IMG/VR virus record: IMGVR_UViG_2671180770_000013
Direction: 5' to 3' (one strand)
Origin: a virus
Taxonomy: Duplodnaviria; Heunggongvirae; Uroviricota; Caudoviricetes
Length of the DNA stretch: 6,176 nt
The notes below the pieces were generated by a model. The model made no database searches. It saw only the letters and a list, made by a program, of their open reading frames with translations, and was not told where the DNA came from. Numbering within the stretch: position 1 is the first letter of the stretch; each line of letters begins with the position of its first letter. The position numbers were made by a program, and so were the translations under genes. Shown piece by piece: positions 4-6,176 of the stretch.

Positions 4-1932
4 TCAGCGACTGTAACCATTCACTCCTCCGGACAGCTTCGCTGCCAGTTCTTTAAGGGTTGGCCGGGTCGTCTCTTCTTCCCGGGATTTTGCCAGTACA
101 GCCAGATCAAGCTGCCAGCGTTGCACGGACACACGTAATGCCGCGTAGGCATACACCAGGCAGTCCAGCGCTTCGTTACGCCGCTTTTTGTTATCCCACA
201 GCAGACGCATCTTTCCTTTTTCCCACTTCTCCACCAGCTCTTCCGCCACCAGTTGCTGCGCCTCTGTCTGCGAAAAAATCTCCGGATCATCAGGAAAACG
301 GATGGCATACGACGTGGCTTCATCCGCAGGCGTGGGATCGGCTTTCATACGGGCATAGAGAATTTCTTTTGCGGTGTCCGTCCCCACTTCGCACAGATAC
401 ACGCCCCGCTGATTGCGGGTTTTTGGCATGGTGATCACCGGCTTGCCATAAACAGATGCGCCTTTTACCGGCAGCACCCGGAAAACACCGTGTTTTTTTG
501 ACCTCTGATAGACAATTTCGCCATCGATCCCCCCGGTGTCCCAGCAGACACGGGAAATGGTCATTTCGGTTCCGTCTGCATGGCGGTATTTTTTGTTGAT
601 CGCCACATCCACACGTAACAGCGTCTCTTCCTCATCGGGACGCCCCATAATGATGATTTTATCCACCAGAAAGGCTTCCTCTCCCGGAGCCCATCCCCAG
701 ACATACATCTCAAAACGGTTTCGCTGCGAGTCAATGCCCGCCGTCAGATAAACCACCCGGGAAGGCACCGCAGCCGTGTAACGCACAACCTTATCCATCA
801 GCACCTGGTGATCGAGTTTTTCGCCCACGGCCTCTTCCCAGGTCTCGCCCAGCGTGGTGTTCACAAAGGTTTTCAGGCCGTTGGGATCTTTCAGTGCATC
901 CAGCCAGTCATAGACAATCTGTACCCAGGTGGTGAACGGACTGTACGCCGTCCAGATATGGAATGTGATGGAGCGCGGCGGCGGAATTTCATTATCCGCG
1001 GCGCTGAAAAACGTCAGACCGTCGCGGGTCCACATCCCCGTGTTTTCGCAGATCCACCGCCCGTTGCTCTGGTCAAGCTCAGACTGATGGATCACGCAGC
1101 CATGATGTTCACAGAGGTAGAAAACGCTTTCGGGGCTGTCCTTCTCCCATTTAAGGCCAAAAGGCGTGGACTCATCGCCAAATTTCAGATACTGCGCCTC
1201 CCCACAGTGCGGGCAGGGCACATAAAAACGCATGAAATGCGCCGACTCGTTGGCCGCTTTTTCGATCTGGCAGGAGCCTTTTATTTTAGGCGTCGAGCCG
1301 CGAATGGATTTTGGCCATACCGAGCCCTCAATACGCTTATCCCCCAGCAGGGTTGGCGAGCCCTCTTTTTCGACATCCGGCTCGAACGAGGAAAGTTCGT
1401 CATAGCAGACCACGTCCACGGATTTTTCACGGTAGTTTTTTGCTGCCGCACCACCCAGGCACCAGAAGCCCACCCCCGATGAAAAGCGTTTCAGCGTGAG
1501 AGTATTGTCACGATGTTTACGACCCAGCCACGGGGAAAGATCTTTCAGGCATGGCACGTCCCGAATCGTCGCCTCCACGTGAGACTTCATAAAATCTTCA
1601 GCGGCAGAATCCGTGGGCTGAAAAAGCAGACTGTTTCGGGATTTATGCTCAATAAAATACCCGGCGACTCCCAGCAACATCTTTGTATAGCCAACACGGG
1701 CAGATTTAATCAGATTAACAGTGCGGATCTGATCATTCCCCATACTGTTCATGATGGCGATCTGGAACGGCAGCGTTTTCCATTCGCCGTCACCGTATGA
1801 GGATTCTTTCGGCAGATAATAATACTGGTCAGCCCATTCAACTGCCGTCATCGGTACAACCCTGACCAGAGGCTGCAGCGCAACCGAAACGGCGGCCACC
1901 ATATTATTCAGTTGTTGCTCTGATATATTCAT
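4..1932 (-). CDS. A: phage terminase large subunit (lambda gpA-like)
   Basis: 642-aa ORF. From the MNIS start it aligns along its length with my recollection of lambda gpA (e.g. TAVEWAD..YYLPKES, KSARVGY(T/S)KMLLGV, GDKRIEGSVWPKSIRGSTPK, CPHCGE.QYLKFGD, FHIWTAYSPFTTWVQIV, KKRRNEALDC). Start placed at the ATG at 1932 by that alignment; the ORF track extends to 1989 with a non-homologous 19-aa leader. Stop at 4-6. Confidence 0.9.
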   Translation of the reverse strand: MNISEQQLNNMVAAVSVALQPLVRVVPMTAVEWADQYYYLPKESSYGDGEWKTLPFQIAIMNSMGNDQIRTVNLIKSARVGYTKMLLGVAGYFIEHKSRNSLLFQPTDSAAEDFMKSHVEATIRDVPCLKDLSPWLGRKHRDNTLTLKRFSSGVGFWCLGGAAAKNYREKSVDVVCYDELSSFEPDVEKEGSPTLLGDKRIEGSVWPKSIRGSTPKIKGSCQIEKAANESAHFMRFYVPCPHCGEAQYLKFGDESTPFGLKWEKDSPESVFYLCEHHGCVIHQSELDQSNGRWICENTGMWTRDGLTFFSAADNEIPPPRSITFHIWTAYSPFTTWVQIVYDWLDALKDPNGLKTFVNTTLGETWEEAVGEKLDHQVLMDKVVRYTAAVPSRVVYLTAGIDSQRNRFEMYVWGWAPGEEAFLVDKIIIMGRPDEEETLLRVDVAINKKYRHADGTEMTISRVCWDTGGIDGEIVYQRSKKHGVFRVLPVKGASVYGKPVITMPKTRNQRGVYLCEVGTDTAKEILYARMKADPTPADEATSYAIRFPDDPEIFSQTEAQQLVAEELVEKWEKGKMRLLWDNKKRRNEALDCLVYAYAALRVSVQRWQLDLAVLAKSREEETTRPTLKELAAKLSGGVNGYSR

Positions 1933-2440: not shown

Positions 2441-2588
2441 AAACAACAACCATGTGTTTTTGCAAAACCATTTGATATCATTGACATTTTTCGCATTGAC
2501 GACATCAAAACACATCGTAAGGTTGTTGTATTTATTTTATTTTCACCTTACTTATCAATTAGATATACCAAACAATTAAACAACAACC
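2441..2588 (-). promoter_or_regulatory. candidate cosB (terminase small-subunit binding region) with three GGTTGTTGT(TT) repeats
   Basis: Identical 11-mers AAACAACAACC at 2441-2451 and 2578-2588 (minus-strand GGTTGTTGTTT) and an inverted copy GGTTGTTGT at 2521-2529, with an AT-rich tract between the distal pair. Arrangement resembles lambda R1/R2/R3 but the repeat sequence differs from the lambda R sites as I recall them. Confidence 0.4.
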
Positions 2589-2626
2589 ACCCCCTCAAAA
2601 AATCTCATAAATAGTGAAAACGCGCG

Positions 2627-2638
2627 AGGTCGCCGCCC
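2627..2638 (-). other. cosN cohesive-end sequence (lambda-type 12-mer GGGCGGCGACCT on the minus strand)
   Basis: Plus strand reads AGGTCGCCGCCC at 2627-2638, the exact reverse complement of the lambda 12-nt cohesive end. Orientation and distance to the Nu1 start match lambda left-end architecture. Confidence 0.75.
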
Positions 2639-2837
2639 CGTAACCTGTCGGATCGCCGGAAAGGACCCGCAAAATGATAATAATTATCATCTACATGTCA
2701 CAACGTGCATCTACGCCATCAAACCACGTCAAATAATCAATTATGACGCAGGTATCGTATTAATTGATCTGCGTCAACTTAACGTAAAAACAACTTCAGA
2801 CAATACAAATCAGCGACACTGAATACGGGGCAACCTC

Positions 2838-3032
2838 ATGTCAACGAAGAACAGAACCCGCAGAACAACAACCCGCAACATCCGCTTTCCTAACCAAATG
2901 ATTGAACAAATTAACATCGCTCTTGAGCAAAAAGGGTCCGGGAATTTCTCAGCCTGGGTCATTGAAGCCTGCCGTCGGAGACTAACGTCAGAAAAGAGAG
3001 CATATACATCAATCCAAAGTGATGATGGATGA
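2838..3032 (+). CDS. small ribbon-helix-helix (Arc/Mnt-like) protein, possibly DUF3950/YlcI-like
   Basis: 64-aa ORF with ATG start and weak GGGG upstream. Arg-rich N-terminal tail, then NIRFPNQMIEQINIALEQKG-SGNFSAWVIEACRRRL, which matches the beta-strand/helix A/G-x-S-x-N turn/helix B pattern of Arc and Mnt (compare RWP/RMP ... NGRS(V/M)NSE). Contains an NFS motif that I recall as the DUF3950 signature. Confidence 0.55.
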   Translation: MSTKNRTRRTTTRNIRFPNQMIEQINIALEQKGSGNFSAWVIEACRRRLTSEKRAYTSIQSDDG

Positions 3033-3219: not shown

Positions 3220-3768
3220 TCAGGCTTGAATACCTTTATCGAATCCCGGTAATAAAAACTGTCCCTGTCTCTCCAGACGTTCCAGCTTTGCAAGCAATTG
3301 AGGTTTTTTCGTTCTCCCCCAGCGATTGAGCAGACGGCCTGACATGCTGGCGACATCCTTCTCTTTCATGTACTCCAGCATTACGGCGTTACGTTCTGCT
3401 TCATAACTTTCGCTGTACTTACGGAGTTCTGCTGACATCCAGTTAAACGCATTGATATAGGCTTCTTTAACAGCATCGGCTTTTGCCCCGTTAAATCCCA
3501 TAACCAGCATAACGAAGCCACTAAAGTCCATGCGGTAGTAAATCTGTTTCTTGTCAAAAATACCTAAGTCATTGATTTTCTCGACGGCCCAAAAATGGGT
3601 TGTCGAGAATTCCTCAGAACATCTCAAACATTTAATAGCCCTAATCACATGCTGATGGCGTTTACCAAATGCCCTGGCAATCTGGAAGGTGTCAGTTACC
3701 GGTTGACCTTCTGCTGCGGTAACTAACTGGCGAAAGTCGAAGTCATGATTCGCAATTAATTCATTCAT
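3220..3768 (-). CDS. rha: Rha-family phage regulatory protein
   Basis: 182 aa from the ATG at 3768. N-terminal signature LVTAAEGQPVTDTFQIARAFGKRHQHVIRAI is typical of the Phage_pRha domain. The ORF-track start at 3837 is a GTG giving a 23-aa extension; the ATG was chosen by domain boundary. Confidence 0.7.
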   Translation of the reverse strand: MNELIANHDFDFRQLVTAAEGQPVTDTFQIARAFGKRHQHVIRAIKCLRCSEEFSTTHFWAVEKINDLGIFDKKQIYYRMDFSGFVMLVMGFNGAKADAVKEAYINAFNWMSAELRKYSESYEAERNAVMLEYMKEKDVASMSGRLLNRWGRTKKPQLLAKLERLERQGQFLLPGFDKGIQA

Positions 3769-3921
3769 GGCGTTGCCTGCTTCTTTGAAATGAACCTTTG
3801 CCGCACAGGAAACCAGCCCACCGAGGCTCGCCAGCACTAACTGGTATCCTCAAAGGCCCATTCCAAAGGGTCAGGTTCGGTGTTTATTGTGCGCTGCGGT
3901 GCGCGGTGAAATACCGGTACA

Positions 3922-3986: not shown

Positions 3987-4424
3987 TTATTTTAAGCACT
4001 GCGTCCTGATGTATTCCTGCAGGTAGTTAACCTGCGCGGTTATCTTGTCGATTCCACCTCGGAGACGGTAATAATTGAGTTCAGCATCTGCTGTAAGTCC
4101 TGGGCTTTCTCCATCGCCCATGCTGCTGGCTCCGGTCGTTGACTTTGCACAGGTGGCGGAGACTTGCAGGCGCTTACGCCCAGCAGAAACATCAGCACGG
4201 AGACTTTCGATAGTCGCATTAGCATCAGCAAGCTCCTTTGTGTATCTGGCGTCAAGTTCTGCTACATCACGTTGCCGCTTCTGCATATCAGCGATGATGG
4301 ATGTGGCTTTATCGCGCTGCTCTTTGTAGGCGATGGCGTTATCACGGTAATGATTAACAGCCCATGACAGGCAGGCGATAATGCAGATAACCAGAGCGGA
4401 GATAATAACGGTTACCCTGCTCAT
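3987..4424 (-). CDS. Rz: i-spanin Rz
   Basis: 145 aa from the ATG at 4424. N-terminus [31 protein letters not shown] closely matches recalled lambda Rz. Has an N-terminal transmembrane segment and a coiled-coil-like body. Its start overlaps the endolysin stop (ATGA). GGGGG Shine-Dalgarno upstream. Confidence 0.9.
4040..4225 (-). CDS. Rz1: o-spanin Rz1 (lipoprotein) embedded in Rz in the +1 frame
   Basis: 61 aa from the ATG at 4225 with AAGGAG 7 nt upstream. Signal peptide with lipobox (LLGVSA-C), then a Pro-rich mature region ([13 protein letters not shown]). Lies entirely inside Rz in another frame, as in lambda. Confidence 0.8.
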
Positions 4425-4918
4425 TGTTGCCCCCACAAACAGACTTCACGCTCAATCTCGCGGCGAGTCATCAGCCCTTTCCATTGCTTACCGCCAGCGT
4501 ATGTCCAGCGCCGTAGCTGATCACATGCGCTTTTGATATCGCCCTGGTTTATTTTGCGAAGAAGCGTCGATGTTCTGAAATTGCCAGCGCCCACGTTGTA
4601 AACGAACGAGTAAAGAGCGCCGCGCGTTGTTTCCGGTATATCGACTTTGATGTACGGGTTTATTTGTCTGGCGACCGTGGCAAGGTCTTTATTCAGGAGG
4701 GCTTTGCATTCTGCTTCGGTATACGTTTTACCGGGCATGATGTCTTTTCCGGTGTGTCCGTGACATACAGTCCATACGCCAACGATATCTTCGTATGGTA
4801 TGTAGCTGACACCTTCCAGGCCATCGTCACCACTCGGACCAGTGATGAGCACAGACGCTATGGCAACAGCCCCACCACCAATAGCAGCAGCAACGGCTTT
4901 TCGTAATGATGGAGGCAT
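4421..4918 (-). CDS. R: SAR endolysin (phage-21 R-type lysozyme)
   Basis: 165 aa. N-terminal Gly/Ala-rich signal-anchor-release segment ([20 protein letters not shown]). Lysozyme catalytic motif E-x8-D-x5-T ([24 protein letters not shown]). Near-identical to my recollection of phage-21 R and DLP12 RrrD. Confidence 0.9.
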
Positions 4919-5124
4919 TATTCACCTCTCACAGCCTTGCGCTTATCTTCTTTAATCTTGAAATAAAGGTTTGTCAGATACGTCAGCAGGCCAAACAGCA
5001 GACTCCCCAGCACACCTATCGCCACCCACTGGGACGGAGAGACTTTGTCCAGCAGCTGCAGTAACCAGTATCCCGTCCCCACCGCTGACGTGGTGTATGA
5101 CACACCCGTTGTGATTTTTTCCAT
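4918..5124 (-). CDS. S: pinholin (phage-21 S-type class II holin)
   Basis: 68 aa, [68 protein letters not shown]. Two transmembrane segments and a charged C-terminus. Stop overlaps the endolysin start by 1 nt. No in-frame upstream start for an antiholin form. Confidence 0.85.
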
Positions 5125-5167
5125 CTGATGTATGTCTCCGTCACCGCCGACAGAAAATGAAAGTAAA

Positions 5168-5204
5168 GGAAAACAAAAAGCCGCCAGTGTCGCCCACTGA
5201 CGGC
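5168..5204 (-). terminator. intrinsic terminator of a short late leader RNA (tR'-like)
   Basis: Minus-strand RNA GCCGUCAGUG-GGCGA-CACUGGCGGC (10-bp stem including one U-G pair) followed by UUUUUGUUUU. Ends about 44 nt upstream of the holin ATG. Confidence 0.5.
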
Positions 5205-5281
5205 CAACGCCGGGAGCCGTGATTATGGCATTCAGGCTCTGCTAAAAATGCCAGATAACATTCCGGCTCCCCCCCTGATTC

Positions 5282-5310
5282 AGGTTATAAATGACACAAT
5301 ATCTTGACAA
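5282..5310 (-). promoter_or_regulatory. candidate late promoter (pR'-like)
   Basis: Minus strand TTGTCA (5310-5305), then TATAAC after a 15-bp spacer or TAACCT after 17 bp. Lies about 105 nt upstream of the tR'-like terminator with a structured segment between. Identical in the second repeat copy. Spacing is suboptimal and the assignment is tentative. Confidence 0.25.
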
Positions 5311-5380
5311 CACCCATCACTGTCTGTCAGAAAATGTACTGCCAGATATAAGTATCATGTGAAACCCAACTATCCTTCTT

Positions 5381-5423
5381 AGCCAGTACTTCTCCGACGA
5401 AAGTCAGTACTGGCTGTTTTTTT
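5381..5423 (+). terminator. plus-strand intrinsic terminator directly 3' of the gene X stop
   Basis: AGCCAGTACT..(GAC-GAAA-GTC)..AGTACTGGCT: 10-bp perfect stem with an inner GAAA-capped 3-bp stem, then G + T7. On the minus strand no U-run follows the hairpin, so it is terminator-like only on plus. Confidence 0.5.
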
Positions 5424-5424
5424 A

Positions 5425-5808
5425 TTATGCTGCCGGTGCATTTATCTCCAGCACCAGACTTTCTATCTCAACGCCATACGCTGCATTTTTTGTAACATCC
5501 GTCAGCGTCAGCGCATTCAGCCCCAGTGTCAGACTGTCTTTTATGACCTGGAATGCCGGGCCAGCCACTCCATTCAGTTTCGGAGTAACCGTGGCACTGC
5601 CGGCGGTGAACACCAGCTCCAGCGTCTGCCAGTCGTTACCGTAATCGCCGAACTCCCCCAGCTTCGTGTTTCCGGCTTTCCTGTGATGCATCAGATTCAC
5701 TCTAGCCACCCACTGGGACGGAGAGACTTTGTCCAGCAGCTGCAGTAACCAGTATCCCGTCCCCACCGCTGACGTGGTGTATGACACACCTGTTGTGATT
5801 TTTTCCAT
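5425..5808 (-). CDS. chimeric ORF: pinholin N-terminal 35 codons fused in frame to the C-terminal 92 codons of an unidentified protein (gene X)
   Basis: ATG at 5808 is the duplicated holin start. Residues 1-35 are identical to the holin, with one synonymous difference. After the junction at 5704/5705 the frame continues through [92 protein letters not shown] to TAA at 5425-5427. Whether it is expressed or functional is unknown. Confidence 0.45.
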
Positions 5809-6063
5809 CTGATGTATGTCTCCGTCACCGCCGACAGAAAATGAAAGTAAAGAAAAACAAAAAAGCCGCAAGTGTCACCGACTGACGGCCAACGCCGGGA
5901 GCCGTGATTATGGCATTCAGGCTCTGCTAAAAATGCCAGATAACATTCCGGCCTCCCCTGATTCAGGTTATAAATGACACAATATCTTGACAACATCCGT
6001 CACTGTCTGTCAGAAAATGTACTGCCAGATATAAGTATCATGTGAAGTACATCTACCCGTTTT

Positions 6064-6099
6064 AGCCAGCGTCCTTCAGAGTGGGCGCTGGCTTTTTTT
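6064..6099 (+). terminator. plus-strand intrinsic terminator, copy-2 variant
   Basis: AGCCAGCGTCC-TTCAGAGT-GGGCGCTGGCT (11-bp stem with one U-G pair) followed by T7. Flanks match copy 1 but the stem interior differs while still pairing. Confidence 0.5.
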
Positions 6100-6100
6100 A

Positions 6101-6176
6101 TTATGCTGCCGGTGCATTTATCTCCAGCATCAGACTTTCTATCTCAACGCCATACGCTGCATTTTTTGTAACATCC
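6101..6176 (-). CDS. 3' end of unidentified gene X (continues beyond window)
   Basis: Same reading frame and C-terminus as the gene X segment in the chimera ([24 protein letters not shown], one Val-to-Met difference). Stop TAA at 6101-6103. Open to the window edge. Confidence 0.5.
   Translation of the reverse strand, partial: DVTKNAAYGVEIESLMLEINAPAA

Follow-up and report, generated by a model that had tools for sequence, protein, structure and literature searches.

The question raised by this locus is which packaging specificity its cos site encodes. The window, i.e., the whole 6,176-nucleotide stretch of Caudoviricetes DNA analyzed here (IMG/VR record IMGVR_UViG_2671180770_000013), had been described in an earlier note as carrying a lambda-identical cohesive end followed by a distinct repeat set, which was taken to suggest a packaging specificity different from that of lambda and matched to the N-terminal domain of the neighboring Nu1 protein. 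Read on the minus strand, the region is a real and ordinary cos, and the combination of elements that it holds has already been described for the “Monarch” prophages. We are confident that positions 2441-2668 represent the cos of a lambda-like Escherichia coli prophage in which N15 packaging specificity is combined with a lambda-style tripartite cosB, i.e., the “Monarch-group” arrangement. On the minus strand, cosQ, cosN, cosB, Nu1, and gpA follow one another as in the lambda gene order (Table 1).

Table 1. Features of the cos region and terminase genes in the window, with bp numbered from the cohesive end and compared with the records of phages 434 and 21
Feature	Window position	Strand	bp in window	bp in 434 and 21	Evidence and remarks
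cosQ, GGGTCCT, packaging-termination subsite	2662..2668	-			82 bp right of cosN (2639-2720) match the right end of phage 434, which has an annotated cosQ, at 100% identity
cosN, 12-nt cohesive-end sequence GGGCGGCGACCT	2627..2638	-		1-12 (identical)	lambda-identical; single exact match, 0.03 expected by chance
Conserved cosN-R3 segment, CACTATTTATGAGATTTTT	2597..2615	-	24-42		89-94% conserved across tripartite relatives; flanks 45-62%
R3, GGTTGTTGT core plus conserved TTAATTGTTT extension	2570..2588	-	51-59 (core), 60-69 (extension)	50-65	exact core at 2580-2588
I1-like putative IHF site, TATCAATTAGATA	2553..2565	+	74-86	74-86 (I1)	one mismatch to WATCAANNNNTTR
R2, inverted GGTTGTTGT	2521..2529	+	110-118	108-123 (434); 107-122 (21)	exact; 59 bp from R3; within R2 of 434 and 21
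Possible second IHF-like site, TATCAAATGGTTT	2465..2477	-	162-174		between R2 and R1; one mismatch to IHF consensus
R1, direct GGTTGTTGT	2443..2451	-	188-196	151-166 (434); 150-166 (21)	exact; 78 bp from R2
Terminase small subunit Nu1/TerS, 168 aa	1904..2410	-	229 (ATG)	190 (434); 189 (21)	Pfam Phage_Nu1 (PF07471), E = 1.4e-21
Terminase large subunit gpA/TerL	4..1932	-			GpA_ATPase, E = 1.9e-54, and GpA_nuclease, E = 5e-71 (PF05876 and PF20454)

The features by which a lambda-like cos is recognized in DNA sequence are all found in the window: a 12-bp cosN with lambda cohesive-end identity, just as the earlier note had read it, a 7-bp cosQ upstream, and the TerS and TerL genes downstream. The nicks would be expected on the minus strand after 2639 and on the plus strand before 2627. 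The cosQ sequence is invariant across all tripartite relatives, including the diverged locus L019, and the bp 24-42 segment between cosN and R3 is also recognizable in lambda, 21, and N15. The start of Nu1 at 2410 is the one annotated by PGAP in a 96.7%-identical E. coli locus (L001), and the first 29 nt of gpA are shared with the end of Nu1, again as PGAP annotates L001.

Downstream of cosN, the exact copies of GGTTGTTGT that make up the repeat set are direct, inverted, and direct in lambda orientation, in agreement with the three repeats and inverted middle copy listed in the earlier note. Comparison of the coordinates with those of phages 434 and 21 superimposes R3, I1, and R2 on the lambda layout and places R1 and the gene start 37 to 39 bp farther out. 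R1 lies 37 bp farther from cosN than lambda R1 (bp 151-166). It precedes the Nu1 ATG at 2410 by 33 bp and an alternative ATG in the same frame, at 2428, by 15 bp, in agreement with the third repeat seen earlier next to the Nu1 start. By analogy with characterized systems, R3 is predicted to be the critical TerS binding site, and R1 is probably an accessory one. The spacer between R3 and R2 (2530-2579) reaches 82% A+T compared to 50% for the window, which bears out the AT-rich, possibly bent region that had been noticed there, and it holds an IHF-like site whose coordinates and strand equal those of the annotated I1 of phages 21 and 434. This I1-like site is conserved in the Escherichia copies, and in L019 it is 69% identical, with three mismatches to the IHF consensus.

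These repeats differ from those of both lambda and phage 21. The lambda R core is GTTTCC(K)TTCT, versus GGTTGTTGT here, and hidden lambda-type sites were rejected since a search of the window for the lambda-type R (CGTTTCCNTTCT) returned no matches with up to two mismatches. Phage 21 shares with the window its cosN and the tripartite layout with I1 but has the R core CATGTCGG, whose sole match with one mismatch or fewer is distant from cosB, inside gpA at 561-569. The comparison with phage-21 cosB that had been proposed earlier consequently revealed no relation. A cosB of the PICI/Rpp type, in which an R3 equivalent alone is followed by rpp (PMC9026076), was also considered and rejected, the window encoding full Nu1 and gpA proteins.

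The protein expected to read the repeats points in the same direction. TerS comprises an N15-type DNA-binding domain, probably a winged helix-turn-helix (wHTH), followed by a lambda-like C-terminal half. Its DNA-binding domain is identical to that of N15 gp1 at 35 of 45 positions (78%), and the helix GISVQAFDKW is identical, all 10 differences being located outside the recognition helix. The corresponding residues of this helix are SVQAFDKW here, SIRTIQNW in lambda, and DPRTIERW in phage 21. Lambda and 434 have the same cosN, the same R3, I1, and R2 coordinates and orientations, and the same Nu1-then-A order as the window, but their TerS proteins are just 36-38% identical overall to that of the window and carry another recognition helix. 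In an AlphaFold model, the N-terminal 50 residues (pLDDT of about 80) adopt the strand-helix-helix-hairpin-helix topology of a wHTH. The top Foldseek matches of the model include the lambda TerS structures 6HN7_B and 1J9I at nonsignificant E values of 0.03 to 0.09, and a phmmer search of the PDB with TerS gave E values of 0.2 to 0.4; the structural support for a wHTH is suggestive only.

The link with N15 was found by a protein-guided search of the DNA upstream of TerS relatives and then in the N15 record itself. In distant relatives of TerS, the same box recurs in the upstream DNA, equally spaced from a cosN-like site, and one of these relatives turned out to be N15-like. The sequence of the N15 left end is ...GACATGAGGTTGTTGTTTAATCATTG..., in which GGTTGTTGT occupies bp 50-58; gene 1 begins at bp 89. 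In this phage, R3 was defined by block mutagenesis as bp 48-59 (GAGGTTGTTGTT) and is critical, scrambling of bp 54-59 lowering the yield about 100-fold (PMC4669245). The R3 core of the window is identical to N15 bp 50-58 and thus corresponds to bases within the mutationally defined site. N15 and the window share the GGTTGTTGTTTAAT R3, which begins at bp 50 in N15 and at bp 51 here (1 bp apart), as well as cosQ and the bp 24-42 segment. Both marks of N15 specificity that can be read from DNA, i.e., a recognition helix identical to that of N15 gp1 and a match to R3-N15 at the R3 position, are accordingly present. Since this pair of repeat and domain is the one known from N15 packaging, the specificity predicted for the window differs from that of lambda and yet is not new. 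The earlier proposal of a distinct specificity matched to the Nu1 domain therefore holds with respect to lambda and 21, and its novelty does not: judged by sequence, the repeat set appears to be that of the N15 specificity already known.

An alternative would be that substitutions in the TerS wing and flanks, together with the tripartite layout, create a new packaging specificity distinct from those of N15, lambda, and 21. Ten of the 45 domain positions do differ from N15, including some near the wing (VPPVERRGREVLY versus VQPVEKRGREVFF), R3 is displaced by 1 bp (51-59 versus 50-58), and the flanks of the R cores are not those of N15. However, the recognition helix is identical, as are the 9-bp core and the adjacent TTTAAT, and the same core is retained with TerS proteins whose domains share just 54-75% identity; a protein divergence much larger than that seen here is thus compatible with the core. 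Furthermore, the wings of lambda and 21 are interchangeable with no change in phenotype (PMC9026076), and lambda tolerates shifts of 1 to 2 bp in the cosN-R3 distance (PMC4669245). We consider a new specificity very unlikely and retain that of N15.

A more basic objection is that the GGTTGTTGT copies are chance or slippage products of low-complexity DNA, or sites for another factor such as a regulator of Nu1, and that TerS reads something else. Three copies of any 9-mer within 160 bp arose in 3 of 1,000 first-order Markov simulations of the whole window and in 12 of 5,000 simulations of a 341-nt stretch with local composition; some triple 9-mer cluster appeared in 62 of 1,000 simulated 6-kb sequences of local composition. 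Because GGTTGTTGT is itself of low complexity, consisting of G and T only and being close to (GTT)3, the repeat count alone is weaker than it appears, and an unrelated fourth copy exists in the window. The statistics alone are not decisive, and the argument is carried by conservation and position. The boxes coincide in position with lambda R3 and R2, all 25 loci, from many genera, have the motif at the R3 position, and L019 retains the boxes at 100% identity and with unchanged spacing between randomized spacers. Moreover, mutation of the same bases in N15 lowers the yield 7- to 100-fold (PMC4669245). Taken with the N15 mutagenesis, this conservation leaves the objection with hardly any probability, and we regard the boxes as R sites.

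The fourth exact GGTTGTTGT lies at 2865-2873 (-), inside the ORF at 2838-3032 (+), which is a ylcI/DUF3950 gene in which it forms the codons for TTT in RRTTTRN. It was rejected as a remote cos element in favor of ylcI/DUF3950 coding sequence. The GGGTTGTTGTTC string recurs in the ylcI homologue of phage PhiR11_1, whose cosB is of the lambda type, and the fourth copy is consequently regarded as coincidental.

The conservation of the box was evaluated by scanning one genome per species for the TerS domain, with GISVQAFD as one of the two search patterns; helix identity was thus largely selected for in the 25 loci returned, and the co-occurrence of the DNA box was not. The loci belong to seven or more genera, namely, Escherichia, Trabulsiella, Pluralibacter, Erwinia, Pseudomonas, Halomonas/Vreelandella, Aeromonas, Oceanimonas, Oceanisphaera, and others. 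In all 25, GGTTGTTGT with one mismatch or fewer was detected upstream of TerS, and wherever cosQ was recognizable in this set, the box was located about 80 bp after it. Most of the 25 loci are simple, with R3 only; tripartite ones were found in Escherichia (L013 and L014) and in L019, and a Pluralibacter locus has R3 and R2 without R1. The R3, R2, and R1 cores and bp 60-69 of L019 are 100% identical to those of the window, with the same spacings of 59 and 78 bp, while its spacers are 28-57% and its cosN 33% identical. One further locus (L006) is N-masked over most of cosB.

At the level of close relatives, about 230 of 5,426 complete E. coli genomes carry this tripartite cosB at 80-100% identity, the copy in E. 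coli 300709 being 100% identical. A blastn search against 50,697 phage records returned no match to cosB itself, the cosQ-cosN part alone being matched. The module made up of the N15-specificity cosB and TerS domain, coupled to lambda-type cosN and cosQ, is widespread in E. coli prophages (about 4% of complete genomes).

Two groups of N15-like cos sites were recognized by Feiss et al. (2015), one of which, comprising N15 and five prophages, has a simple cosB with R3 and a remote rR2 (PMC4669245). In the other, the Monarch group, the helix and the R sites are of the N15 type, the R sites number three and are accompanied by an IHF site, and rR2 is absent (Feiss et al., 2015; PMC4669245). The window differs from the first group. 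A simple N15 cosB has one R3, a TerS start at about bp 89, an rR2 about 200 bp distal within gene 1, and no IHF site, whereas the window has three R sites and a TerS start at bp 229, and no match to GGTTGTTGT with one mismatch or fewer, i.e., no rR2-like copy, was found within the Nu1 gene (1904-2410). In addition, the N15 cosN differs from that of lambda at bp 9 and 12, and that of the window is lambda-identical. The second group and the window have in common an N15-identical helix, three N15-type R sites of which R2 is inverted, a site for IHF (putative in the window) that separates R3 from R2, the lack of rR2, and a lambda-like cosQ and cosN. Because each feature named in the published verbal description of the Monarch group, on which the comparison is based, is found in the sequence (three R sites with R2 inverted, an IHF-like site, and no rR2 in TerS), we assign the cos to the Monarch type. 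No difference from the Monarch prophages could be demonstrated by comparison with that description.

In the lambda model, dimeric TerS places its wHTH domains on R3 and R2, which are brought together by IHF bending of I1; R1 is accessory, and the anchored TerL nicks cosN (PMC4669245). By homology, the N15-type wHTH domains of a dimeric TerS would bind the GGTTGTTGT boxes of the window. IHF would bend the A+T-rich I1 (bp 74-86) and so draw the inverted R2 (bp 110-118) toward R3 (bp 51-59), so that the TerS dimer could contact both, and R1 (bp 188-196) would add affinity. The anchored TerL (gpA) would then introduce staggered nicks in cosN, giving lambda-identical 12-nt 5′ cohesive ends, and cosQ would serve termination at the next cos. 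What the sequence shows is the elements themselves, where they lie, how well they are conserved, and that the recognition helix and R core equal those of N15; binding of TerS and IHF at the sites listed in Table 1, the positions of the nicks, and the functionality of the prophage are inferred.

Functionality in particular has to be weighed against the possibility that this cos is a relic of a defective prophage, unused unless a superinfecting N15-specific phage acts on it. Nearly identical cosB sequences do occur in degraded Qin-like prophages, such as L001 with its capsid and tail-fiber pseudogenes, an IS1 interrupts the cos/Nu1 region of a 99.9%-identical locus in E. coli N25 (NZ_CM165897.1, ~1853729-1855242), and no isolated phage among the 50,697 records has this tripartite cosB. 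On the other hand, TerS and TerL of the window are full-length ORFs and every cos subsite is intact; the boxes show purifying conservation, and the element is kept in about 230 genomes. We regard a relic as somewhat unlikely, though deserving more weight than the other alternatives considered. It concerns the activity of one copy and leaves the identity of the element as a Monarch-type cos undisputed. The match to the N25 locus is split in two pieces, with cosB covered from query position 73 onward.

What such a cos would accept and reject can be anticipated from published packaging data. In the N15 study, lambda and 21 terminases failed to package N15 DNA, but the N15-specific terminase did package lambda DNA (PMC4669245), and we predict the same one-way asymmetry here. 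As cosN and cosQ are lambda-identical, one-way cross-specificity in nature is possible. A second IHF-like sequence at 2465-2477 adds a further element: at the aligned position, L019 has a one-mismatch site (AAACAATAGGTTA) between diverged flanks. A role of 2465-2477 as a second bend site is speculative, and the match may be a product of chance. Together with R1 being 37 bp farther out, the retention of this IHF-like site in the diverged L019 might point to folding with two bends. We can thus imagine, with low probability, a two-bend initiation complex unlike the single hairpin of lambda, whose terminase would package the DNA of resident lambda-type prophages while its own DNA would be immune to lambda-type terminases.

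The result adds little that is new and confirms that N15-type specificity circulates in E. coli. Its uses lie in correct annotation of cos and packaging specificity and in predicting cross-packaging among coresident prophages or PICIs. The element is also a natural lambda-cosN/N15-cosB construct, which could serve to address a question already raised in the literature, namely, whether TerS-N15 makes use of a hairpin when cosB is complex. The points of mild interest left are the displaced R1, accompanied by a second IHF-like site that may be conserved, and how broadly GGTTGTTGT is conserved across the Gammaproteobacteria, the R3 box tracking the TerS helix well past the enterics (Pseudomonas, Halomonas, Aeromonas, and Oceanimonas).

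The relatives also revealed how the parts of the module have been combined. In E. coli Sx181 (L003 ~1470-1500, aligned to 2615-2660), another cosN (GGGTCGGTGGAC...) with other flanks precedes the same tripartite cosB and TerS (~90% identical), which indicates that cosB moves together with the TerS domain rather than with cosN. Further cosN alleles are GGGCGGTAGACG in L010 and GGGCGGCGTCCG in N15 and L008, and given the several alleles found across relatives, cosN is shuffled relative to cosB. A lambda-identical cosN also precedes an N15-type simple cosB in the Ravinvirus Enterobacter phage MStein-2023a, so the pairing of a lambda cosN with an N15-type R3 is not unique to the window. Inside Nu1, a mosaic breakpoint is located at ~2160-2175 (codon ~81), as would fit an exchange of cosB and the DNA-binding domain as one module. 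Residues 81-168 of Nu1 are about 90% identical to TerS of PhiR12_1 and PhiR12_2, the match stopping short of the N-terminal half, and about 1,100 other E. coli genomes, including O157:H7 strains, match just the 3′ 300 nt at ~84%.

Variants of the cosB layout were observed as well. A metagenome contig (L010, 620-730; TerS 58% identical) has an intermediate cosB, with R3 (GGTTGTTGTTTCGTTGTT) at bp 51-59 and a single inverted copy (ACAACTAACAACAACC) that immediately precedes the Shine-Dalgarno sequence; R1 is absent, and no IHF site is obvious. In loci L017 to L037 (Pseudomonas, Halomonas, Aeromonas, Oceanimonas, and others), GGTTGTTGTTT is found ~40-60 bp upstream of locus position 901 and is followed by ATG within a few bases, as in GGTTGTTGTTATG and GGTTGTTGTTTAGTCCATG. 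With this box-then-ATG order and an N-terminal extension of TerS ahead of the DNA-binding domain, the nonenteric R3 abuts or overlaps the translation start. Pseudomonas phage vB_Pae_BR299a presents the same R3-at-start pattern.

The remainder of the window holds a Rha-family regulator with an ORF11CD3 domain (3220-3837, minus strand; 205 aa), located between cos and the lysis genes Rz, lysozyme, and holin (3987-5124). The position of this regulator varies in relatives, being taken by cspI/gnsB cargo in L001 and by perC in L002. Beyond the lysis genes, a direct repeat of ~480 bp (5016-5500 and 5700-6176; 92-99% identical, with a period of ~684 bp) has doubled the holin 5′ end together with the DNA upstream of that gene, and the second copy runs past the end of the window. 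The ORF at 5425-5871 (minus strand) encodes the first 35 holin residues fused to an unrelated C terminus.
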